A DNA stretch of 64,000 bases from a virus, in the IMG/VR virus record IMGVR_UViG_3300032323_001119, positions 32,001-96,000 of that record. One strand, 5' to 3'. Under the pieces are notes generated by a model. It was not told where the DNA came from. It was given only the letters and a program-made list of their open reading frames with translations, and ran no database searches. Within the stretch, counting starts at the first letter, position 1. Each line of letters opens with the position of its first letter. Below are positions 3,561 through 56,192 of this stretch, piece by piece. A program made the position numbers and the translations under genes.

Positions 3561-3595
3561 TTATTTCTCTTTCTGTTTGATATTACATTTATTCG

Positions 3596-3668
3596 TATCC
3601 CCAGATGGGCTCGAACCATCGACCCGCAGATTAAAAGTCTGCTGCTCTACCAACTGAGCTATAGGAAC
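3596..3668 (-). tRNA. tRNA-Lys(TTT)
   Basis: Cloverleaf with anticodon arm GCAGA-CTTTTAA-TCTGC and T arm GATGG-TTCGAGC-CCATC; no encoded CCA. Confidence 0.9.
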
Positions 3669-3669
3669 G

Positions 3670-3742
3670 CTGCCCCACCTGGCCTCGATCCAGGGACATC
3701 CAAATTAACAGTTTGGCGCTCTACCATCTGAGCTATAGGGCA
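3670..3742 (-). tRNA. tRNA-Asn(GTT)
   Basis: Acceptor TGCCCTA/TGGGGCA, anticodon arm CCAAA-CTGTTAA-TTTGG; atypical T loop ATCGAGG. Confidence 0.88.
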
Positions 3743-13041: not shown

Positions 13042-13353
13042 TTAACCCCCGTGTTTTTTCTTTAAGATCTTATCTATATCTTTAGTTTTGTGTATATTTT
13101 TTGATTTATCTCTTACCCCATTAGACAAGTATACACCACCCCATACGCCATAGTTCTCAGACTCTTTACCGTATTCATAGCATATTGCTATCACTGGGCA
13201 GGATATGCATGCTTGATCAATGCTTTTTGCAACATTGATGTCGGACTCATATAGATCAAAAAATAGGTTAGTGTCCATGCCTAAGCATAGGGCAAGATCT
13301 TGCCATTGAACTGAGTCTTTATCTACCCCTAGGCTATTTAAAAAATTTGACAT
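13042..13353 (-). CDS. whiB: WhiB-family Fe-S transcription factor
   Basis: WQDLALC...FF...CISCPVIAIC...YGVWGG. Confidence 0.93.
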   Translation of the reverse strand: MSNFLNSLGVDKDSVQWQDLALCLGMDTNLFFDLYESDINVAKSIDQACISCPVIAICYEYGKESENYGVWGGVYLSNGVRDKSKNIHKTKDIDKILKKKHGG

Positions 13354-13564: not shown

Positions 13565-13580
13565 CTAACTTCCTATCTAG

Positions 13581-13664
13581 TACCCATAGTCGGATTTGAA
13601 CCGACACTCCACAGTTGGAGGCAAATTTTAAGTCTGCTGCGTCTGCCGATTCCGCCATACGGGC
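13581..13664 (-). tRNA. tRNA-Leu(TAA)
   Basis: GCCCGTA/TATGGGT acceptor, GCAGA-CTTAAAA-TTTGC anticodon arm, long variable arm; TTGACA-17-TATAAT promoter at 13680..13708. Confidence 0.9.
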
Positions 13665-21430: not shown

Positions 21431-21506
21431 TGGTGCCCCTGAAAGGAATCGAACCTCCGACACGCAGGGTAGAAACCTGCTGCTCTATCCACTGAGCTAC
21501 AAAGGC
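21431..21506 (-). tRNA. tRNA-Arg(TCT)
   Basis: GCAGG-TTTCTAC-CCTGC anticodon arm; CCA encoded. Confidence 0.9.
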
Positions 21507-21510
21507 TTAG

Positions 21511-21584
21511 TGTGCCAGGTAGGACTTGAACCTACGATTACCGAATTATGAGTTCGGGGCTTTAACCAACTAAGCTACTGGCAC
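21511..21584 (-). tRNA. tRNA with CAT anticodon (elongator Met or Ile2)
   Basis: GTGCCAG/CTGGCAC acceptor, CCGAA-CTCATAA-TTCGG; no initiator features. Confidence 0.85.
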
Positions 21585-30291: not shown

Positions 30292-33200
30292 TTTATTTCC
30301 TTTATATTTAAAGTTCCATCATCTAGTTTAGATAGAACAACCTTGCATTTCATTCCTTCACGCATCTTAGCAAGAGTCATTTTATACATTGTAGGGAATG
30401 CAATTGCTCTAGTCAATTCTTTATTTCTATTTGAAAGGACTATGTGGCTCATTGTCTTTCCTGCTTTTGTTGTGTATGGCGTAAAGTTAACAACAATATA
30501 TTCATCTTCTTCTAAATCATATTCTTTTCTATATAAATAATCTACAAACATATCTTTTGATGATGGATCAATATCTGACACCTTAATATATCTAGCAATT
30601 CTATTGTCTCCAACTAGAATAAAATACATCTGACCAACTTCAATTTGTGTTTGTTCATTATGGAAAAGTCCAATTGATCCAGTTTCATCTACAATCTCTA
30701 CTCTTGCCCATCCAGAACCACGCTTAATTCCCTTGACCATTCCGAACATAACAAAAGAGCCGAGATCGTCAAATTCTTCAATGGGTCTAGCTTGTGCTTT
30801 AACTCTAGGGGGTATTCCCTCTAAGTTAAATGTTGGGATACCTAAATATTCATAGTAGTTATCCTTTTCATTGCCCTGTCTTGGGTTATCCTTAAATGCT
30901 GCTGCACCAATTGCATTTAGGGAGCTTACTGCCCTGCTGTTAATGCCGCTTCCTTTAGACGAAGCAACTGAAACAAACTGGTTGTAGTTGTCGTAAGGTC
31001 TATTATCAATAATTTTATTTGCAATGTTATCAGAAATAAATTTAATTTCAGATAAACCAAATCTAATAGCATCTTTTTGCAATGAAAAATAAAGATCAGA
31101 TTCATTAACATGTGGAAGAAGAACTTTTAGTCCTAGTCTTTTAGACTCAATAAGGTACTCTGTTCTCGCATCTTTATCATTTTCATTCTTAAGGATTGAA
31201 AACATGAACTCAAGTGGGTAGTAAAACTTAAGCCAAGCAGTATAATAGCTAAGCATAGAGTAAGCAACAGCATGGGAACGGTTAAAAGAATAGCCAGCAT
31301 GCGCTTCAAAATCGTGCCATAGCGCCTCTGCTTTTTTCTTAGTAATGTGCTCTGAAGCCCCAGTAACAAACCTATCTTTGAACTGGTCAAACTCTTTTGC
31401 ATCTTTTTTCTTTCCAATAATCTTGCGGACCTTATCAGCCTCTGCCCAAGTCATACCACCCAAGTGTACGCATGCCTGCATAACTTGCTCTTGATATATA
31501 ATAACACCATATGTGTTCTCGGTAAATGGCTTCATAATTGTATGCATGTAGTCTACTGCTTCATCCCCATGCTTACGCTTGATGTAGGCAGCTCCAACAG
31601 TATTCATGGCTCCTGGTCTTACCAAAGCGTTTGAAGCAACTAAATCTTCAAACTTGTCTGTACCCATTTTAATTAAAAGATTTGTGTAGGGTGTAGCTTC
31701 TGCCTGAAACACGCCCTTAGTGTAACCTTCGCTAAGCATTTTATAAACTTCTGGATCATCTAATGATATATCTGACAGTACTATGTCCTTGCCAGTTCTG
31801 GACTTAATAGACTTAATTGTGTCTGATATAACAGAAAGAGTTTTTAGTCCCAAAGCATCGAGTTTAATAAGACCAATATCTGCAACAGTGTCCATGTCAT
31901 ATGCAACTACTGGTATTCTGCCAGATACTTTATCCTGTGCATCTTCTCTGGATTCAACTGGAGCAAACTTTCTAAGGTCATCCTTTGCAACTACAACTCC
32001 TGCTGCGTGTACACCAACTGATCTAATACGACCACGAAGTCTATCTGCAAGCCAAACTACTTCTGGATACTTGGCTCTAAATTCTTTTGTGTTAGGGGAA
32101 GTAATAAAATCTTCAAACGTATCAATTGATTTCATTGCACGGTTAACTTCTTGCAGTGGTACCATAAATATTCGTGCTGCATCACGAATTACACCTTTAT
32201 CTTTAAAGTATGTATATGTAGAAATAGATGCAACATGCTTAAACTTTTTCTTAAGATATTCTTTTACTTCTTTACGACGTCTGTCTTCAAAGTCTGTATC
32301 AATATCTGGGAAGTCATTGCGCTCTGGATTAATAAATCTAAAGAATAGAAGATCGTATTTAATGGGATCGACATCTGTAATTCCTAAAGAATAGCAAACA
32401 AGTGAGCCTGCTGCAGAACCACGACCAGGCCCAACACGAATATCATTTGTCTTTGCCCAGTTAATCATATCAGCAATAACTAGAAAGTATGATGCAAAAT
32501 TCTTTGAGGCAATAACGGAAAGTTCTTCTTCAACCCTATCGATATAAACTTGATTGTCAGATAATCCTAGACTAGAAAGCCCTTGGTAAGACATTTCACG
32601 CAACTTATCGTCAGCATCTGTTTTTGGAACTGGCAGAAGATCGAGACCCTGATAGAAATCATATTCCTCAACTTTGTCTGAAATCTCCATTGTGTTTTCG
32701 TATATATCTGTACGAGAAATGCCAGAAGCATTAAAGTCAGCCTCAATTTCTGAACGTGATTGTATAAATAGATTATAGTCCTGAAAAGAAATTCTACGAT
32801 CAGGATAAAGATAGTTAAATCTTTCCATCATGTCTTTAATGTTTCTAGACATTTCAAAGTCTGAATCTTTATCAATCTTTGGAGATGTAGACAGAATGAG
32901 AAGTGCTTCTTCTAAAACTCTGTCTTCTTCTTTAGCAAAGTGAGCATCTCCTGTAGCAACCGCTTTAATTTTTAGCTCGTCTGCTAATTCAAGAAGCTTA
33001 TCGTTTATTTCTTTTGGGTTATGAGACTGTACTTCAACATAAAAATCATCACCGAAAGTTTTTTGAAAATCCTTGAGAACCAATTTAGCTTCACTAAACT
33101 CGCTCCTTTCGATAGCCTTAGAAATAAGACCATTAAGGCAGCCAGAAAGGACAATAATACCCTCTGCATACTCTTTTAATACCTCTCTATCAATACGTGG

Positions 33201-46882: not shown

Positions 46883-47331
46883 TATACTTCTTCCAGTGAA
46901 ATAGATACATCCCAAAATGCCTGTGGAGCATCAGATATTTTTTCTTTTACATTTCTTTTAATTAAATTAAATGAGCAGGCTGTAAATGACGCAAGGAATT
47001 CCTCTGTTCTTGTAGAGTTATATGCAATTCGTACATTAAAAGTTCCCTGCCCTTTAGCGCTTAAATAAAATGTTCTTAGGTCTTCTGCCCCCCAAAAGCC
47101 ATCTACGGTCATTGTAGAGTATGATGGAACCGTGCTCCATGAGGTAGATACAGTCTTCTTATCGGCTATAAACAGCTTTCTAAGGCTTCCATTGGCCATC
47201 CTAGCAGTTCTTTCAAACCTTTGTGTATCTATAGATATAGGGGATCTATTATGTTCTGTTAATTGACGCCATGCGTTAGTAGAGTCTTGTATAAACAAGG
47301 CTGCACCTACTGGTAAAATTAAAGCTGGCAT
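46882..47331 (-). CDS. distal tail (Dit-like) protein
   Basis: Directly after the TMP; RMANGSLR...WDVSISLEEV. Confidence 0.7.
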   Translation of the reverse strand: MPALILPVGAALFIQDSTNAWRQLTEHNRSPISIDTQRFERTARMANGSLRKLFIADKKTVSTSWSTVPSYSTMTVDGFWGAEDLRTFYLSAKGQGTFNVRIAYNSTRTEEFLASFTACSFNLIKRNVKEKISDAPQAFWDVSISLEEV

Positions 47332-50300
47332 TATATATTCTTCCCCTGTCCTACCATTTTAACATTAATCTTAGCTTTTTGTCCAATAACAACCTCAGCC
47401 TTTTTAACAATCATATTAGACAATGCTTCGACATCCATTCCTTCTGATGCGTAAATATTTTGGTTAACAACATAAGAGTTGCCTGAAACAGCACCATCTC
47501 TTACATTATACTGAGCTTGGTTAAAATTATATCTTGGCGATGCCGCTGCTAATGTATTCATTACATCGTTTGGCATAATATTTGCTTTATTCTTTAAGTG
47601 TACAAACTCTGGTCCTCTTTCTCCAACCAGGAACATTCCGCTTGCATTTTCAACACCAGTGGCAGCCTTACCTGCAAAGACTATGTTACCGTCTTTTTTG
47701 CTTCTTGAATATTTTTGTCCATTCCAAATAAATGTTTCGCCTAGCTGCAAGTCTAGTCTATCTTTAATTGCATCACGAGCCTGTGCATTAAGAACCTTTA
47801 TCTTTTTACCATCAAATTCTTTTTCTTCCAGCTGGTTGCTGTAGTTACCAGTAACCTTTATATTTCTTCTTAGCGTAGGATCTCCATTTGCACCCTTTAT
47901 GGCATTTACAACATCCTTAAGAGTTGCCCCACCCTTAATACTATTTGCGAGTGCTTCATTAACTCCTGCGCCAGTTCCAGATTTTAATAGAAGGTCTAGT
48001 GCATTTTGTTGTGGAGAAACTGGAACCTTAGTTGTAGTTGTAACTGGGCCAGTAGATGTTAATTCAGTAGTAGTTTTTGTTGTATATCTTGGCATTTTTT
48101 CGCCAGTTACGGCTTCCATTGCAGCCACAAATCCTGCTGCTGCTTCTTTATTTTTCTTCACATACTCTTGAATTGATTGTCCAGCTGCAGCTGCATTTCC
48201 GTAAAGAGCAGTCATAGAATCATTAACCTTTTTAATAGCAGCTTCCTGCTTATCATATCTAGACTTAAGCTTATCTAAACTTTCTCCAGCAATTGCTGCC
48301 GAATCAGAAAGTTTTTGCTGCTTATCTCCTAGCGCTTCAGCGGCTGCTTTAAGAGGCTTGTTAGCTGCTTCTGTAGCTTTATCTATTGCTCTCATCTGTG
48401 CTTCTGTTTGTTGCTGAGAAGTTAAAGACTCTAAATCAATTCTTAAGCTTTGCGCCTTCTCAGTGTCTCCAGTTGCGGCAGCATTTTGCATTTCAATTCT
48501 AGTTTTTTCAATTTGTCTTCCTAGATCTGCGTCTTGCTGTGCTGCCGACAAAGCCTTCTTTCTTGCTTCTGCAAGCTTATTGTTTGCATCTATTTGCTTG
48601 TTTAAAGCCTTTAGTCTATCTCTATCAGAAATTTGCTGAGCAACAGTCTGTCCCTTAAGGGCCTTTGTGTAGTTTGCAATTTGGCCCTTTAGTTTATCTA
48701 GGCTTGCATACTGCTCTTTTAGTATTCCAGTTCTATTTGTAGACTGTACTGAATCTGATATTGCTGCAAAAGAGTCTGCGATTACTTTAGTTTGTGCTGC
48801 GTTTAATGCAGAAAGATCTCCGTTAAATCCTTGTGCTTGAAGTCTAATTTTTTGCCAAACACTGACAATGGTGTCAGAACCATTAATCATCTTCTTTACT
48901 TCAGGATTTGTCTTAGCCATTTCATTAATAGTGCCTTGTGTAATTGCTGTACCAGCTTCTCTAGACTTGTTTATTTTGTCTATCATTATCTTTTCAGCTT
49001 CTGCATATGTAAGAGACTTTGTCTTACCGCTTAAATCTTTAGCAACAAGTCTTTCTCTTTTGGCAATTAAATCATTGATTCCAGTTTCAGTTGCCATAAG
49101 AGCAGTATTTAAAGATGCCGCCTTTTCTTTATTTCCCTGATCTCTTGTATCAGCACCAAAGCTAGTAACTGCTGAAACTGCTGCAGATTGTGGATCGGTA
49201 ATTGCTTTGAACTGTGCATTACCCATTGTTGCAGTAATTGATTGATCTTTTTTATTTGACAGCTGAAGCATAGTATAAACTTTTTTAGTTGCCTCATCTG
49301 CAGACATTCCAGCTGCAATTAGCTGCTCTTTAATTCTACGTACAGCATCAGGCACCTTGTTTGAAGGCTGTCTATCTAGTGCTTTAATCTGCTCTCCAAA
49401 AGTTTCTTTTACTTCTTTCTTTAATTCTTTGTATTCTGCAATTGTCATCTGGAATGGAGTCCCGCCATCTTTCATGCTTTCATACACAAGCTTATTTGCA
49501 GCCGCCATATCCTTGGCATCCTGAATAGTATCTTTAATTTTTGATCCGAAGTCTGTAAATCTTAGGTTAGCTTTTTTAGCTGCTTCTGCAGTCATTCCAA
49601 ATGTAGATATATTAAGTTCTTGTCCCTTTTTGTAGTTCTGCCACATCTTGTATCCAGCAATACCTGCTAGAGTTACTGCTGCTAGTGGGGCAACTAGTCC
49701 TGCTGCTGCAGCTGCGGTTGCACCAAATCCAGCTGATGCCATTCCTGCTGTTGCTGCACTTGCTGCAGCACGTTTTGCAACCATTCCGCCTATGCCTTTT
49801 ATAAGAGATGGGCCAGCCATTGATCCAACCATTGAGCCCATCATCATTCCATTTTGTCCACCAAGGGCATTTCCTATTGCTCCCCCTGCTGCCATTCCAC
49901 CCATAGTGCCAAGCATCATGCCTCCAGCGCCTTGGCCTAGTTCTGGGTTTACGACACCCTTTGCTCTCATATATTGAACTGGATGTAACATTGCTGATGT
50001 AGAATAACGAGCATTTGCCATAAACGATCTTCTAATTGCATTATCTGCTCTGGATGCTGGAACTTCATTGCCACGTCTATCTATATATGCTGGATTAAAA
50101 ATTGCTCCTGGAGCATTAGCAGCTATTGATCTTTCTTCTCCAATTTTATTTTTGCGATTCTGTATCATCCCAGCAGTTCTATATCCTGAATCTTTTATTC
50201 TAGTCCCAAGTGAGCTTATACTTGATGATATATCTGAAGCTGCAATTCTAGCACTTGTTATTAATCTTGTAGATGCTGCCTTAAGTCCATTAGAGATAGA

Positions 50301-53300
50301 AGAAAATGCTGAATCTATTGCTACGTTAGCTCTTTGTAATGGAAGCTTTAACCCTGGCATGTAAGGCAAAGATCCTTGCAGTGTAGGAACATTTGTCACT
50401 ACACCCTTTCCACCAACAAATGAAGTTGTCCCTACAGATAGTGGCCCAGGCTTAGGTGGAGTAGTAGCAACTGGCATCGGTGCTCTTGATGCATTAAGGT
50501 TGTTTAAATAAAGCTGTCCTATTGCCCTCTGACTTGGATCTCCTGATTTTAAAAGACGGTTAGCATGCTCTTTAGATGTAACTTGGCTAACATCAGAAAC
50601 CTTTTCGCCATAACCTATTTTACTAGATTTGACTATACCGCCTAGCATAAATCCTGGAATTATCTTGCCGCTCTGTTGTGGGCTAAATATTTCTGGACCC
50701 TTTTCTCCAACTAAATAGCTTTGTCCTGGAGATACTGGTCCTCCCATTTCTCTTTTACCATCAATGCCAAATATCTTTTTCTTAAGATCGTCTGTAATTG
50801 GTGTATTCTTTTTTGAATCCCAATTTAAGTATTTTTTCTTTAAAATATCTTTATCTATTGGAGAAAGTTGTTTTAAAACATTTCTGTCTGAAATCATATC
50901 GCTGGCAGCAGATCTAATTACTGCATCTAAAGCGTCTGGCTCAAGTCCATTCTTCAGTGTGCCGTCTGGCATCTTTACATAGCCATAAGGCTTTTCTTTT
51001 GCTAAAGCTGCTGCAAACTTATCGTATAAAAGCTTTTGAGTATTTTTTCTTAATCCAGTTCCAGCAAACAGCGTTTCTGCCATTTTAATTGATAAGGAGT
51101 TTACTCCCCATGGAGCAGATTCATACATGCTAGGTTTAGGGGCACCAGTTGGTCCAAAACCTGCACCTATTCTTCTCATGGCTATACCCTTTAAGACATT
51201 GCCAATTATTCCTCCACCATTAAATCCGTTTAGAGGAGTCTTAAAAGAATTGTCGCTTAGAGATATTGCATGACCTCTTTGACGTATTCTTAATTCAGCT
51301 TCGTCTTTTAACTTCTTTAATGCTGCTGGTGTAAGTGCCTTAGCTTTTGCAATTTCAACAGAAGAATGAATTCCATGGAACTCTTGCCAATTAACTGCTC
51401 TTCCATCTTCTAGCCTTTTAATCATTGCAGCATAAGCTTTAGCTTCATCTGGAGTTAAATCAAATCTTGATATGGTAGTCTTTAGTCTTGGTAGAACTGC
51501 ATCAATTTCATCAATCATTGCTTTATGATATTGATCTGGAGTCATACCCTTTGGAATTGACAATGTGGACTCTGCAAAGAATCTCTTTGCTCCGCCCTTT
51601 ACTCCGAGCAAGTTAATACGTGCCTGCTCTTTCATCGAAATCATTTCTTCTTCATAGGCTCTTTTACCAGAAGCCATCTTAAATACTCCAGCCGTTCCAA
51701 CATCAGCCAATGTGCTTCCAGAAAGATTATCTCTACTTAAATCTCTATCTCCTCTTAAATTAGCTGCAACTAATTGCTTAAAGTAATCTTCTCGTGTAAA
51801 TGATCCTGACTTATTTACAAATGCTTCGTCATAAGGAGACTCTAGTACAAGCAGCTTTCTCTTTCCAGTTGGATCTGTAGGGTCAAGCATGGTTCTAATT
51901 TCTTGTCTTGGAGCATTTAATCCATGTGCATCTCTTGCAATAATAGTTGCACGTTGCTCTGCTAGGGCTGCAGTTTCATCCATTACTGGTTTAACAAATA
52001 CTTTAGTTCCATCTGGTTTTTCATAAACTCCACCAATTCCAGAAACTGGGAAGCTTCTTCCAGATGAAGGAGAAATTAGTTTTCCAAAGTCTGTTGGAGG
52101 CATTGAAGCAAATCTGCTTGTACTCAAAGATTGGCTTATTTCATCCATCTGCATTCTTGCGTTTCTTTGTTGCTCTACAGCTTTAAATGATCTAGGCATT
52201 CCAAGGAAAAGCTTGCCGTATCCGTACTTGCCTTTCTTTACCATACCGCCGATCATACCGCCAGCATTAGCAGCTCTAAGTCTTCTTCCTCCAACCATTG
52301 CAAACATCTGTCTCTCAGCTTTTCTAGGTTTTGCTGGAGTTCCAGACTCTCTAAATATTTTCATGTCAGCACCCAATGCTCTGACTAAGCTTTCTGGTAT
52401 AGGACCTTTACCAGTCCATCTGCCAGTAGAAATCCATTTTTCAATAACTGGTATATGTCTTTTAAAATCATCTACATCTTTAAATCCAAATGAAGTTGCA
52501 AGCCTGTGTGCTCTAGCTATAGCCTCATCTTTGGTAAGCGGAACTACGTCATCAATAATTTTTCTTTGCTCTAACCTGTTTCCAAATTTGTTAAAGTCAT
52601 CATGGGCAGCTTCTCCGTAATAGCCTCGTGCAGCTATAGGCCCAGACATTCTTTCTATATGTGCACGATCCCAGCCTGGATTTATGACAGCACCAGGGAA
52701 CTTTGCTTTTAAAAGATTAAGTATTTGAAGCTTTGCTCTATTATTATTTTTTGCTGCACCTGCTTTTGCCAGCTTCCAATCTTTGTCTGTTTGTCCTGGC
52801 TTTCTTTCAAGCACAAGATCTGGGAAATTCTTTTGCATGTAGGCTCTTTGTGCCTCAACATAGCTCATTCCTTTACCAGTTCTTAGATACTCTTCATGAC
52901 TTGCCAAGGCAAGTCTTACGGCTTTTTCTGCTTCTGCAATTGCTCTTGAAGGAGTCATATTCATGTCTTTTGAATACTGCAGTATTGCAGTTGCATCATT
53001 TTGAATTAAGTTAGGAACAATATGATCTACATAAGGAGTTCTAACTCCAGTTAGATGATCTATGTACTGAGATGCTTTTTGAAGCTCAGACATCCCTCTT
53101 GCTGGACCGTCAAACATGTCTTGCATCTTGCCATAATTTCTAATTCCTCTTGTTACCATGCCACCCAAAATTCCGCCATTATTTCTTAGTTGGACTCTTG
53201 ATCCACTATTAGCTTTATCTAGCAAAGGCTTGTTGGCTGCTGTAAACTCTGGGTCGAAATAAGTTTCTCTAGGTGTGAGAATCGCATCTATAACTTTGCC

Positions 53301-56192
53301 CCCACGATTGTATCCATTTGATGCCATTCTAACTAAATCAGGATTATTACGTGAAGCTTCTTGATTCAATATGTAGCTTCCTTCTGGAAGTCTTGCTGGA
53401 ACCATATCATAATCAATATTTGATGGGCCTGGGACTATTGAACCATGCTTTGATGGATCATAAACTAATCCTCCAGTATTTAGCTGTCTAGGTTTTGTAG
53501 TCTGAATACTATACCCTGCGCCTGATGTTCTAACGCCAAGCCCACGAGCAATTGAATCTACAAGCTTAGAAGTTTCTGTTTTGTGAAAAAGCTCTTTCAT
53601 GTTTGACTTGCCTGCTGCGCTTACAACTGGCTGTGTCGTTAATGGAACTGTAGTTAAACTCAAGGTTCTTGCCTGTGCTGTTGCAACACCTTGAGCCGTT
53701 TGAACCATCATTGCTTCTACTTGTGCATTTAATGCAAATATTTTTGCTCTTGCTGCTTCTACTGTAATCTTACCAGCTTGCAACTGTTTAACAATTAATG
53801 CTGTTTCGTCTGCCGCTAAAGATGTTATCTTTGTCATTTGTGGCAAAAGTGCCTGATATGAATCTGATAATGATGCGGTTACTGTACCAGTTGCTGCTAT
53901 TTCAGTCTTAAGTGTTGCTAATTCTGCTTTTGACTGCATAGCAATTGCTGCTGTCATTGAGTGCCACTTAGCAGCTTCTGCTGCAACTACACCAGTAGAT
54001 ACACCGTTTACAGAACTCAGCCCTTGAACTCTTGGCAGATCATCTGACATGTAAAGTTGTGGGGCATTCGAAATTCTTTGATTTACTGGCTTTGGACCTG
54101 GTACTGTAGAGAATATTGTTTCTTCTGCTCTTTGCTGTGGCGTCTTTGATCCAGTTGGAATCATGTGAGACATGTCTCTAGAATATGCTCTACCTACAAG
54201 AGGATTATTCTTATCTACTATTCTTCCTCCGCCTGCCATTACTGGGTTTCCAGCAACAGTAGACATACTATTGGATGTAGCAATAGTCGAACTCATTGCG
54301 CTTTGCTTTAGTCTATCAAATGATGCCGCAAGGGTCATTACTGCATCTGAGAATGTAGCAGCAGCTTTTGTATCGCTATAGAATGATTGCTCTACTGTTT
54401 TGGCAGCAGCAGATGCTGCCATTAATTCTGGTGTTAATAATTTAAAGCCAGTCCCACCCTTACCGATGTTCTTAAGGGCTAATATTCCTTTTATTATATA
54501 TCCGAAGAAGTTTGCAAGCACACCAGTAAGCATGATTATAGGACCAGCAATTGCTGTAAGTCCACCAATAAATCCTAGAACAGCTTTAATTGGACCTGGC
54601 AGATTTCCAATAAACTTTAAAATTCCATCTATAGCATTTAATACAAATGCACCAATTTTTAAGAATTGTTCTCCAACTACCGCAAGTTCTGCTTTTACAG
54701 ATTCAAGTGCTCTTCTGTATTTACCAGATGCAGATTCTGTAAGCGCTGTTAATTCTCGTGCTGAAATTGCTGCTAAGTCTTGTGTGCTTGCTTTCATCAG
54801 GTCTAAAACTTGAAGAGTCTGGCTTCCTTCTTTACCAAGGTTTTCAAACAATGCGTTGATTCTAGCAAATTGAAATTTACCGAATAGCTGTTCAATTGCT
54901 CTTGCTCTTTGTAGAGGCTCAAGTGAATCTAGGGAATCCTTGAGTGCCATAATTGTTCCAGTTAGATTTCCAGCATTTTTATTTACAATGCCAGACAAGT
55001 CTATTCCGAATCCCATAAACATTTCTTTGGCAACCTTTGTAGGGTTAATTACAGATGCTAAAGCTGACTTTAATGCGTTGGCACTTTCTGATGCGTTAAT
55101 TCCACCTTCACGCATAGCAGTTAGATAAAGAGCAAGGTCTTGTACTTCTCCACCAAGTGCTTTTACTACTGGGCCTGCTTTTGGAATAGCAGTTACTAAA
55201 TCATCTAGAGTAGTAGATGTCTGGTTTTCAACTGCGTTCAAGAAGTCGATTGACTCGGCAAGTTCCATTGTATTTTGTCCGAAGGCTGTTTGAATAGCAA
55301 GCGTAGCCTTCATAGCTTCTTGTCTATCTACTTCACCAAGAATTGCAAGTCTAGTTGTTTGTCTTGTAGAGTCTATAAGATCTGCGCCCTGTTTTCCAGT
55401 AGCAGCAATATCTGCGGCAAGTGCAATAGTTTCTGTAAAGTTTGCTCCTAATCCAGAAGCTAATTCTCTAGATACTGCCATAACATCTTTACGAACCTGA
55501 AGAAGATCGGCACTTGATGTTGCAACTAATCCGCCATAAACCTTTGTAAGTCTTACAAGCTCTTCATCTGCTTGTCTAAATGCTTTTGCTGCAGCCATAC
55601 CAAACGCTGCAAGTGGCACAGTTAATCCTACTGTTAACTGGCGACCAGCCCACTGTGTATTCTTACCCCAATTGATAAGCTGATTCGATCCATCCATCAT
55701 TACCTTGTTCATGATGGCAAGTTCTTGTCTTAGAAGAGCTGACTTATTTTTTGTAACGTCTAGTCCAGATTGAACCATTACGTTATATTGCATTAAGCCT
55801 TGTGCATTTTTACCAAGCGGCTGGATAATTGAATTCTCAAGCATTACCTGCTGCTTAGCAAGGTCTCGAACTAAATTGCTAGTCTTCTGTGTATGTCCTT
55901 GCCATGTTCTGAAGTACTGGCCAAGCTTCATTCTGCCGCTGTCTAAATTTTGTCCAAACTTAGATACGTCTGATGTAAGAGTTACGAAGTGTCTAGAAAA
56001 CTGGCCAGTGGAGCGCATGGTTTCGTCAAACTGACGATTCATGACTCCAACCTGGCTAGTTAGGTTTTTATTTAAACCAATTGTTGTAGCTTGGAGTTTT
56101 AAGAGTTGCGAAGTAACCGCTTGTAACTGCGCTGTTAGGCTAGAAAAATTAGCCGTCGCAGTTATGTTGGTTACTATATTTTGATCTGCCAA
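47331..56192 (-). CDS. tape measure protein with internal cargo domains (2953 aa)
   Basis: TP901-type TMP core in the N-terminal third, hydrophobic segments, LVGE(K/R)GPE motifs; follows the tail chaperones. Confidence 0.92.
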   Translation of the reverse strand: MADQNIVTNITATANFSSLTAQLQAVTSQLLKLQATTIGLNKNLTSQVGVMNRQFDETMRSTGQFSRHFVTLTSDVSKFGQNLDSGRMKLGQYFRTWQGHTQKTSNLVRDLAKQQVMLENSIIQPLGKNAQGLMQYNVMVQSGLDVTKNKSALLRQELAIMNKVMMDGSNQLINWGKNTQWAGRQLTVGLTVPLAAFGMAAAKAFRQADEELVRLTKVYGGLVATSSADLLQVRKDVMAVSRELASGLGANFTETIALAADIAATGKQGADLIDSTRQTTRLAILGEVDRQEAMKATLAIQTAFGQNTMELAESIDFLNAVENQTSTTLDDLVTAIPKAGPVVKALGGEVQDLALYLTAMREGGINASESANALKSALASVINPTKVAKEMFMGFGIDLSGIVNKNAGNLTGTIMALKDSLDSLEPLQRARAIEQLFGKFQFARINALFENLGKEGSQTLQVLDLMKASTQDLAAISARELTALTESASGKYRRALESVKAELAVVGEQFLKIGAFVLNAIDGILKFIGNLPGPIKAVLGFIGGLTAIAGPIIMLTGVLANFFGYIIKGILALKNIGKGGTGFKLLTPELMAASAAAKTVEQSFYSDTKAAATFSDAVMTLAASFDRLKQSAMSSTIATSNSMSTVAGNPVMAGGGRIVDKNNPLVGRAYSRDMSHMIPTGSKTPQQRAEETIFSTVPGPKPVNQRISNAPQLYMSDDLPRVQGLSSVNGVSTGVVAAEAAKWHSMTAAIAMQSKAELATLKTEIAATGTVTASLSDSYQALLPQMTKITSLAADETALIVKQLQAGKITVEAARAKIFALNAQVEAMMVQTAQGVATAQARTLSLTTVPLTTQPVVSAAGKSNMKELFHKTETSKLVDSIARGLGVRTSGAGYSIQTTKPRQLNTGGLVYDPSKHGSIVPGPSNIDYDMVPARLPEGSYILNQEASRNNPDLVRMASNGYNRGGKVIDAILTPRETYFDPEFTAANKPLLDKANSGSRVQLRNNGGILGGMVTRGIRNYGKMQDMFDGPARGMSELQKASQYIDHLTGVRTPYVDHIVPNLIQNDATAILQYSKDMNMTPSRAIAEAEKAVRLALASHEEYLRTGKGMSYVEAQRAYMQKNFPDLVLERKPGQTDKDWKLAKAGAAKNNNRAKLQILNLLKAKFPGAVINPGWDRAHIERMSGPIAARGYYGEAAHDDFNKFGNRLEQRKIIDDVVPLTKDEAIARAHRLATSFGFKDVDDFKRHIPVIEKWISTGRWTGKGPIPESLVRALGADMKIFRESGTPAKPRKAERQMFAMVGGRRLRAANAGGMIGGMVKKGKYGYGKLFLGMPRSFKAVEQQRNARMQMDEISQSLSTSRFASMPPTDFGKLISPSSGRSFPVSGIGGVYEKPDGTKVFVKPVMDETAALAEQRATIIARDAHGLNAPRQEIRTMLDPTDPTGKRKLLVLESPYDEAFVNKSGSFTREDYFKQLVAANLRGDRDLSRDNLSGSTLADVGTAGVFKMASGKRAYEEEMISMKEQARINLLGVKGGAKRFFAESTLSIPKGMTPDQYHKAMIDEIDAVLPRLKTTISRFDLTPDEAKAYAAMIKRLEDGRAVNWQEFHGIHSSVEIAKAKALTPAALKKLKDEAELRIRQRGHAISLSDNSFKTPLNGFNGGGIIGNVLKGIAMRRIGAGFGPTGAPKPSMYESAPWGVNSLSIKMAETLFAGTGLRKNTQKLLYDKFAAALAKEKPYGYVKMPDGTLKNGLEPDALDAVIRSAASDMISDRNVLKQLSPIDKDILKKKYLNWDSKKNTPITDDLKKKIFGIDGKREMGGPVSPGQSYLVGEKGPEIFSPQQSGKIIPGFMLGGIVKSSKIGYGEKVSDVSQVTSKEHANRLLKSGDPSQRAIGQLYLNNLNASRAPMPVATTPPKPGPLSVGTTSFVGGKGVVTNVPTLQGSLPYMPGLKLPLQRANVAIDSAFSSISNGLKAASTRLITSARIAASDISSSISSLGTRIKDSGYRTAGMIQNRKNKIGEERSIAANAPGAIFNPAYIDRRGNEVPASRADNAIRRSFMANARYSTSAMLHPVQYMRAKGVVNPELGQGAGGMMLGTMGGMAAGGAIGNALGGQNGMMMGSMVGSMAGPSLIKGIGGMVAKRAAASAATAGMASAGFGATAAAAAGLVAPLAAVTLAGIAGYKMWQNYKKGQELNISTFGMTAEAAKKANLRFTDFGSKIKDTIQDAKDMAAANKLVYESMKDGGTPFQMTIAEYKELKKEVKETFGEQIKALDRQPSNKVPDAVRRIKEQLIAAGMSADEATKKVYTMLQLSNKKDQSITATMGNAQFKAITDPQSAAVSAVTSFGADTRDQGNKEKAASLNTALMATETGINDLIAKRERLVAKDLSGKTKSLTYAEAEKIMIDKINKSREAGTAITQGTINEMAKTNPEVKKMINGSDTIVSVWQKIRLQAQGFNGDLSALNAAQTKVIADSFAAISDSVQSTNRTGILKEQYASLDKLKGQIANYTKALKGQTVAQQISDRDRLKALNKQIDANNKLAEARKKALSAAQQDADLGRQIEKTRIEMQNAAATGDTEKAQSLRIDLESLTSQQQTEAQMRAIDKATEAANKPLKAAAEALGDKQQKLSDSAAIAGESLDKLKSRYDKQEAAIKKVNDSMTALYGNAAAAGQSIQEYVKKNKEAAAGFVAAMEAVTGEKMPRYTTKTTTELTSTGPVTTTTKVPVSPQQNALDLLLKSGTGAGVNEALANSIKGGATLKDVVNAIKGANGDPTLRRNIKVTGNYSNQLEEKEFDGKKIKVLNAQARDAIKDRLDLQLGETFIWNGQKYSRSKKDGNIVFAGKAATGVENASGMFLVGERGPEFVHLKNKANIMPNDVMNTLAAASPRYNFNQAQYNVRDGAVSGNSYVVNQNIYASEGMDVEALSNMIVKKAEVVIGQKAKINVKMVGQGKNI

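Follow-up and report, generated by a model that had tools for sequence, protein, structure and literature searches.

Can a phage tape measure protein (TMP), a molecule usually seen as a ruler and channel former which at most carries wall-degrading modules, also hold an active kinase within its chain? The question is raised by a single open frame of 2953 aa at 47331-56192 on the minus strand of a 64,000-nucleotide stretch of viral DNA, positions 32,001 to 96,000 of the IMG/VR virus record IMGVR_UViG_3300032323_001119 (hereafter the window, to which all coordinates refer; all features named here lie on the minus strand). The frame encodes a TMP, and an earlier note on this DNA had proposed, from the letters alone, that a kinase-like domain of the HipA/PI3-4K type lies inside it. 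On the basis of a structure model and of the alignment of its homologues, TMP aa ~1335-1655 is predicted to be an atypical protein-kinase-like fold with a complete catalytic set. The segment forms a cassette between two linkers (aa 1335-1655; 51228-52190), delimited by clusters of homologues and by its presence or absence among relatives. A search of open-access papers and preprints returned no description of a kinase in a tape measure protein.

Catalytic Motifs and Their Conservation

All five kinase motifs claimed for this region are found in the order and at the places given for them, within 51696-52043 (TMP aa 1384-1499). In the translation, the Gly-rich loop SGIGGVY (aa 1384-1390; 52023-52043), which the structure model places between beta-1 and beta-2, is followed by VFVK (aa 1398-1401; 51990-52001), ending in the beta-3 Lys K1401 (51990-51992), and by ALAEQRA (aa 1409-1415; 51948-51968), in which E1412 (51957-51959) is the helix-C Glu. 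Further along come GDRDLSRDN (aa 1481-1489; 51726-51752), containing the catalytic loop D1484-L-S-R-D-N1489 (51726-51743), and LADVG (aa 1495-1499; 51696-51710), in which D1497 of D-V-G (51702-51704) is the equivalent of the metal-binding Asp of DFG.

Conservation was assessed over 230 non-identical homologues of the domain, 28-93% identical to the query, in 321 alignment columns. K1401, N1489, D1497 and G1388 of the Gly-rich loop are present in every homologue, the catalytic Asp D1484 in 229 of 230, G1499 in 227 and E1412 in 222, the remaining eight having Gln at this last position. Since just 7 of the 321 columns are fully invariant and the beta-3 Lys, the catalytic-loop Asn and the DxG Asp account for three of them, the motif set is more than a chance resemblance. 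Six homologues have Asn in place of D1482, the first Asp of GDRDL, and the catalytic Asp is therefore D1484, the second. For the family as a whole, the catalytic loop reads D-(K/R)-D-L-x-x-x-N, without a conserved His. The proposal had been staked beforehand on the Lys, Glu, Asp, Asn and Asp of this set being conserved among homologues, and it withstood that comparison. Judged from the coding sequences, the kinase cassette is under purifying selection, with pairwise ratios of nonsynonymous to synonymous substitution of 0.10-0.23 against eight relatives, synonymous sites being near saturation.

Predicted Fold and Structural Neighbours

An AlphaFold2 model was built from an alignment of 41 rows (alignment A2), comprising the query, 19 translated IMG/VR loci, short fragments and 18 distant giant proteins, the last being drawn from an exhaustive search of cluster representatives and their row placement confirmed by script. 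The model has a predicted local distance difference test score (pLDDT) of 88.9 and a predicted template modelling score of 0.83, with 230 residues at a pLDDT of at least 90; from the single sequence, AlphaFold2 gave a pLDDT of 42 and no usable model. In the numbering of the model, the N-lobe consists of a strand (32-36), the Gly-rich loop, a second strand (49-52), a third strand with the Lys (58-63), a helix with the Glu (67-82) and two further strands (92-97 and 107-114), after which a helix (128-141) leads at once into the D-x-x-x-x-N loop, a short hairpin, the D-x-G and a helical C-lobe. This is the canonical order of kinase elements, from beta1 to beta5 through helix E, catalytic loop and DxG to the C-lobe. 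Taken together, the predicted structure and the alignment display the bilobal architecture, the Lys-Glu pair, and the Asp, Asn(+5) and metal-binding Asp of the protein-kinase-like fold. The folded core covers aa 1345-1615 (model residues 6-276; 51348-52160), and structural matches span residues 5-276; the span of 51360-52110 first proposed for the domain contains all the motifs but falls short of the folded region.

Comparison with known structures returned kinases throughout. The top 50 matches of Foldseek against the PDB are all kinases, led by CtkA, at weak scores (E 8e-4, template modelling score ~0.3), and the top 50 of VIA-align, a comparison independent of Foldseek that was run over 48,161 representative chains, are all kinase-fold enzymes. 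The Z scores of VIA-align are 11.9 for CotH (5jda; 218 residues aligned at a root-mean-square deviation of 4.0), 10.0 for MavQ, 9.9 for PI4KIIa, 9.7 for CtkA, 9.6 for Fam20C, 9.1 for HipA and 8.8 for Vps34, while a third structure comparison, again with kinase-like enzymes throughout its top 50, gave Z 11.2 for CtkA and Z 10.3 for PI4KIIb; overall, HipA scores 8-9, and PI4KII, Vps34 and PI4KIIIb score 8-10. The match to a kinase fold on which the earlier note had also staked its claim was thus obtained, with a confident bilobal model and kinase-like structures in all top-50 positions.

The atypical kinases at issue are CotH of B. cereus (5jda), CtkA of H. pylori (3akk), HipA/HipT (3dnv, 4pu3, 7ab3), PI4KII alpha/beta (4hnd, 8a5x), MavQ and LepB (7m7a, 4jw1), Fam20C (4kqa) and Vps34 (2x6f). 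With these the TMP domain shares the predicted bilobal fold, 185-218 residues being superposed at Z 9-12, as well as the order and type of the motifs. It differs from them in that identity in the structural alignments is 8-16%, that similarity at the sequence level is absent, and that none of them sits in a phage tail protein. The label of HipA/PI3-4K type agrees with the structural neighbours and with the named neighbours in the ESM Atlas, which are HipA_2 (18 of 30), PI3_PI4_kinase, LepB_N and actin-fragmin kinase, but no one family stands out, and none of the Pfam kinase models has a match.

Three families were considered as a home for the domain and set aside. Membership of the HipA family (HipA_C PF07804/HipA_2 PF20613) is not backed by any profile match, so that the domain can be called like this group and not a member of it; PI3_PI4_kinase (PF00454) gave no Pfam match, and the His of its DRHxxN loop is not conserved here; and the profile of CotH (PF08757) finds nothing in the 110-kb phage genome, yet matches 4 of 14 control genomes.

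In the BFVD, the neighbours of the model are large phage portal/ADP-ribosyltransferase fusions and PI3/4K-annotated phage proteins, with E values down to 4e-6. Since similar folds are found there in such fusions, kinase-fold cargo is suggested by these predicted models to recur in virion proteins outside TMPs as well. Among the matches (model m896beba8862f) are proteins of Mycobacterium phage Onyinye and of the Gordonia phages GodonK and Sixama, which are portal or ADP-ribosyltransferase fusions, and the PI3/4K-annotated matches are proteins of uncultured and haloarchaeal tailed viruses.

The Carrier Protein and Its Exchangeable Cassettes

The product of the 2953-aa frame has the PhageMin_Tail core of TMPs (PF10145, Pfam E 4e-27) at aa 243-438 (54879-55466) and matches nine tape-measure families of PHROG, the best at E 1.6e-119. 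It has hydrophobic segments, and its gene occupies the slot between the tail chaperone and the distal tail genes, an Ig-domain tail protein and two small frames in the chaperone position lying to one side of it and minor tail proteins to the other.

A search with the cassette of 1.84 billion cluster representatives, with no limit on length, retrieved 168 clusters, of which 141 fall below E 1e-30. All matches longer than ~1,300 aa are proteins of ~1,500-4,500 aa, and the short ones (144-1282 aa) are either truncated copies of the domain or fragments flanked by TMP sequence, no clear stand-alone gene for the kinase domain being found among them. In a collection clustered at 90% identity, 790 clusters have the domain. 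The best 120 of these are all 1973-4319 aa long; most have PF10145 and are named as TP901-family tape measure proteins, none has a Pfam kinase annotation, and a few carry CHAP (PF05257), LysM (PF01476) or OmpA (PF00691) modules. As far as these sequence collections reach, the kinase module is restricted to giant TMPs.

Within the TMP, a series of cassettes is marked out by three to four Gly-rich linkers that are related to one another and share the pattern N-x-G-G-(I/M)-(I/L)-G-G-x-V...G-Y-G-K. The first (aa 1004-1030; 53103-53183; RNNGGILGGMVTRGIRNYGK) opens the variable cargo region, the second (aa 1306-1332; 52197-52277; ANAGGMIGGMVKKGKYGYGK) stands just before the kinase cassette, the third (aa 1655-1690; 51123-51230; beginning FNGGGIIGNVLKG) follows it, and a weaker one is seen near aa 1850. 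They bracket cassette A (~1030-1305), the kinase cassette (~1335-1655) and cassette C (~1690-1850). The upstream type of linker also precedes the kinase cassette in the relatives P0003, P0005 and P0224, and in P0280, a relative without the kinase, the downstream linker is present and stands directly before cassette C.

Among the 120 proteins closest to the N-terminus of this TMP (at least 72% identity over aa 100-640), 39 have no kinase cassette. These 39 are collinear with the query in the N-terminus, the hydrophobic segment, the mid region, cassette C, the second hydrophobic region, the coiled-coil and the C-terminus, and they diverge from ~aa 985-1003, at the first linker, where collinearity of the mid region stops in all relatives. 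The identity of the kinase does not follow that of its carrier: TMPs with 94-98% identity in the N-terminus share 58-91% in the kinase cassette, and others with only 73% in the N-terminus and ~30% in the coiled-coil still share 70-74% in the kinase. In the most distant kinase-bearing TMPs, nothing but the kinase and the N-terminal part can still be recognised. Because the module is present or absent among close relatives and its identity is uncoupled from that of the backbone, we read it, from these sequence comparisons, as optional, exchanged between lineages and under a strong constraint of its own.

Four relatives (P0248, P0258, P0223 and P0224) are mosaics with respect to the TMP of the window, being 96-97% identical to it in the N-terminus, 58-68% in the kinase cassette and 74-76% in the mid region, a pattern in the alignments that suggests that the TMP gene has recombined internally, at the linkers or close to them.

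Cassette A (TMP aa 1030-1305; 52278-53105), which accompanies the kinase in 45 of 227 giant kinase-bearing proteins, is likewise bracketed by linkers and has no match in Pfam or the PDB. In the ESM Atlas it has viral clusters without names as neighbours, with a weak lead to the polyvalent-protein-associated LPD38 (score 0.87, 18% of members). In the slot of cassette A and the kinase, relatives without the kinase hold other unrecognised sequence, as in P0267 (aa 990-1568) and P0280 (aa 985-1295).

The motif LVGE(K/R)GPE, which we take to be typical of the C-terminal ends of TMPs, occurs twice in the protein, once near the true C-terminus (aa 2857-2862; ~47607-47624) and once internally, at the end of cassette C (aa 1829-1834; ~50691-50708). 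The TMP family phrog_1538 matches with its own C-terminal part at aa 1809-1902. By sequence, this internal site may be an ancestral end of the TMP, behind which later sequence was added.

Proposed Delivery of a Kinase by the Tail

TMPs fill the tail tube, leave the virion ahead of the DNA and enter the envelope, and for this reason a cassette embedded in a TMP would be expected to be delivered into the host. The reading that we favour, at a probability of about 60%, is that the cassette is an active kinase carried in the TMP, delivered with it, and used to phosphorylate a host target early. In this scheme, the cassette would act as an ATP-dependent phosphotransferase that travels with the TMP in a metastable or unfolded state and is threaded into the actinobacterial envelope. 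It would then fold at or inside the membrane, where it could be held by the hydrophobic segments of the TMP, the first at aa 503-574 (54471-54686; membrane-type, Kyte-Doolittle window above 1.5) and the second at aa 2154-2182 (49647-49733; found by hydrophobicity, after a Gly/Met-rich stretch). Once refolded, the kinase would phosphorylate its host target at the very onset of infection, before phage genes are expressed. Such delivery is made plausible by the TMP of Thermus phage P23-45, a protein of 5002 aa to which a virion RNA polymerase is fused; this enzyme is reported to act in the host from the very start of infection, transcribing the pre-early genes (Nat Commun 2024, PMC10770324). That TMP is described as metastable in the tail tube and as being ejected into the envelope (PMC10770324).

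Several points weigh against delivery of an active kinase or against the kinase assignment beneath it. Sequence searches give no kinase: Pfam scans of the segment and of both neighbouring segments, at E up to 10, returned noise only (NanE, E 0.12), scans of 28 family members found no kinase family and no HipA model, and searches of the PDB sequences with the single sequence and with a profile gave no meaningful match. An hhalign comparison of the family profile with E. coli HipA reached a probability of 0.11, with a GLxxP...E.(F/Y)D stretch as its only suggestive part. As neither Pfam nor the PDB sequences match, the domain is, in terms of sequence, a new family within the kinase-like fold, for which Pfam has no model. 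The fold itself is a prediction from the model. The Z scores of 9-12 are only moderately above the 7-8 typical of unmatched models, and the template modelling scores from Foldseek are low; the weight therefore rests on the unanimity of the neighbour lists and on the positions of the motifs. The DxG Asp stands 8 residues after the catalytic-loop Asn, a closer spacing than most kinases have. A folded 30-kDa domain, in a tail with several copies of the TMP, is unlikely to fit the lumen of a siphovirus tail, and therefore delivery would need unfolding followed by refolding. Finally, a tblastn search of 50,697 cultured phage records did not find the domain.

Both protein kinases (CotH, CtkA, HipA, Fam20C) and lipid kinases (PI4KII, MavQ, LepB, Vps34) are found among the structural neighbours, none of them clearly ahead, so that the structure does not point to a protein or to a lipid as the substrate, which is a further weakness of the favoured reading. 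The leading candidate for the target, at somewhat below even odds, is a host protein, phosphorylated in the manner of HipA or CtkA with shut-off of translation or defence; second, and in our view unlikely, comes a lipid of the membrane or a small molecule, for example phosphatidylinositol.

Of the alternatives, the one that survives best, though we think it quite unlikely, is that the kinase is active late in the producing cell, in whose cytoplasm the TMP is made late, within the TMP or clipped at the linkers during tail assembly, and that it modifies proteins of the host or of the phage there and never enters the virion. The conserved Gly-rich linkers on both sides of the cassette could be processing sites, and processing of TMPs is known in other phages, as for gpH of lambda. 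Moreover, TMPs of close relatives range from ~2400 to 4300 aa through gain and loss of cassettes, which is awkward if every residue measures the tail. Pfam scans found no peptidase domain in the TMP, however, and there is no obvious reason why a late-acting enzyme should be embedded always and only in a TMP; the RNA polymerase fused to the TMP of P23-45 also demonstrates that large enzymes can travel with such a protein (PMC10770324).

We regard as improbable an assembly kinase in the manner of CotH, acting in cis or on phage structural proteins and helping the assembly or the metastability of the tail or the TMP rather than attacking the host. It draws on CotH, a kinase of structural spore-coat proteins, being the best structural match (Z 11.9), and on Fam20C, a kinase of the secretory pathway, standing near the top as well. 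The lead of CotH over CtkA, PI4KII and MavQ is nevertheless at most ~2 Z units, its Pfam model has no match in this genome, and, since 39 of the 120 closest relatives manage without the cassette while their N-terminus, mid region, cassette C and C-terminal part stay collinear, the cassette is not needed for assembly. More improbable still is a kinase fold with another chemistry or none, such as a SelO-type AMPylase or nucleotidyl transferase or a pseudokinase used for binding or as a spacer, for while kinase-like folds do support other reactions and no sequence family membership could be established, the full phosphotransfer set is near-invariant over 28-93% identity, where pseudokinases typically lose some of it, and the nearest structures are all phosphotransferases.

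Returning to delivery of an active kinase at infection, a more specific and rather doubtful version may be put forward tentatively, in which a large clade of uncultured actinobacterial siphophages uses the TMP as an exchangeable carrier of effectors. The kinase would refold tethered to the membrane and act, before phage gene expression, on phosphatidylinositol-type lipids or on a membrane-proximal factor of defence or translation, and alleles and cargo would be swapped at the NxGG linkers in order to track variation of the host.

Comparison with Known Systems

The TMP of P23-45 is, together with the kinase domains of phage polyvalent proteins, among the nearest precedents in print; it too is a giant TMP (5002 versus 2953 aa) carrying an enzyme of the cytoplasmic type. 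The two differ in that its RNA polymerase is N-terminal, with delivery and activity shown, whereas the present module is of predicted kinase fold, lies in the middle of the protein between linkers and is optional among close relatives, its delivery and activity being proposed.

Wall hydrolase domains embedded in TMPs (CHAP, LysM) are likewise enzymatic modules inserted in these proteins, and some kinase-bearing relatives carry CHAP, LysM or OmpA modules besides the kinase. They act on peptidoglycan outside the membrane and need no ATP; a kinase does need ATP, and therefore, unlike them, it would need access to the cytoplasm.

T7 gp0.7 is an early-expressed protein that the virion does not carry. 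Kinases are also found among the polyvalent proteins of phages and conjugative elements, which have several domains and a cassette-like build and for which injection is predicted (Iyer et al. 2017, PMC5512222). With both of these the present domain shares the concept of a kinase, supplied by the element, that alters host proteins early. The kinases of polyvalent proteins are of the Ser/Thr/Tyr type, have lost the whole C-terminal lobe and occur mainly in (pro)phages from the Verrucomicrobia-Chlamydia group and from Bacteroidetes, and tape measure proteins are not mentioned in that paper (PMC5512222). Here, by contrast, the C-lobe is present in the predicted fold and it is the TMP of actinobacterial phages that carries the domain. 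A cargo protein of the polyvalent type would combine several unrelated effector-like domains that are exchanged as cassettes; in this TMP, cassettes are present or absent and alleles are exchanged, the kinase cassette is the only one with a recognisable enzymatic fold, and no processing peptidase was found.

A conserved module in the TMPs of hundreds of phage lineages, seemingly an active kinase, would, if it is indeed delivered, be the second enzyme of the cytoplasmic type to travel in the tail lumen, after the RNA polymerase of P23-45, and would add phosphorylation of proteins or lipids to what a phage can do before its genes are expressed. The hosts are probably abundant lake actinobacteria, and such a step of take-over or of anti-defence could be widespread in nature. 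In being optional and in exchanging alleles at its linkers, the cassette is reminiscent of polymorphic toxin systems, and an arms race is suggested by this behaviour.

Genome and Host

The virus record, of which the window is a part, is a complete one from an uncultured virus, 110,437 bp long with terminal repeats, has a G+C content of ~38% and encodes every gene on the minus strand. A gene of the WhiB family (PF02467, E 6.9e-12) lies at 13042-13353, with the match at ~13132-13305; among 14 control genomes, WhiB was found in Corynebacterium only. The major capsid protein is 58-62% identical to its counterparts in Streptomyces phages. Because of the WhiB gene and of this capsid protein, the host is probably an actinobacterium, and both features bear out the host group assumed when the kinase was first proposed.

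Five tRNA genes, Lys-ttt, Asn-gtt, Leu-taa, Arg-tct and Met-cat, are present on the coding (minus) strand at 3595-3742, 13580-13664 and 21431-21584.

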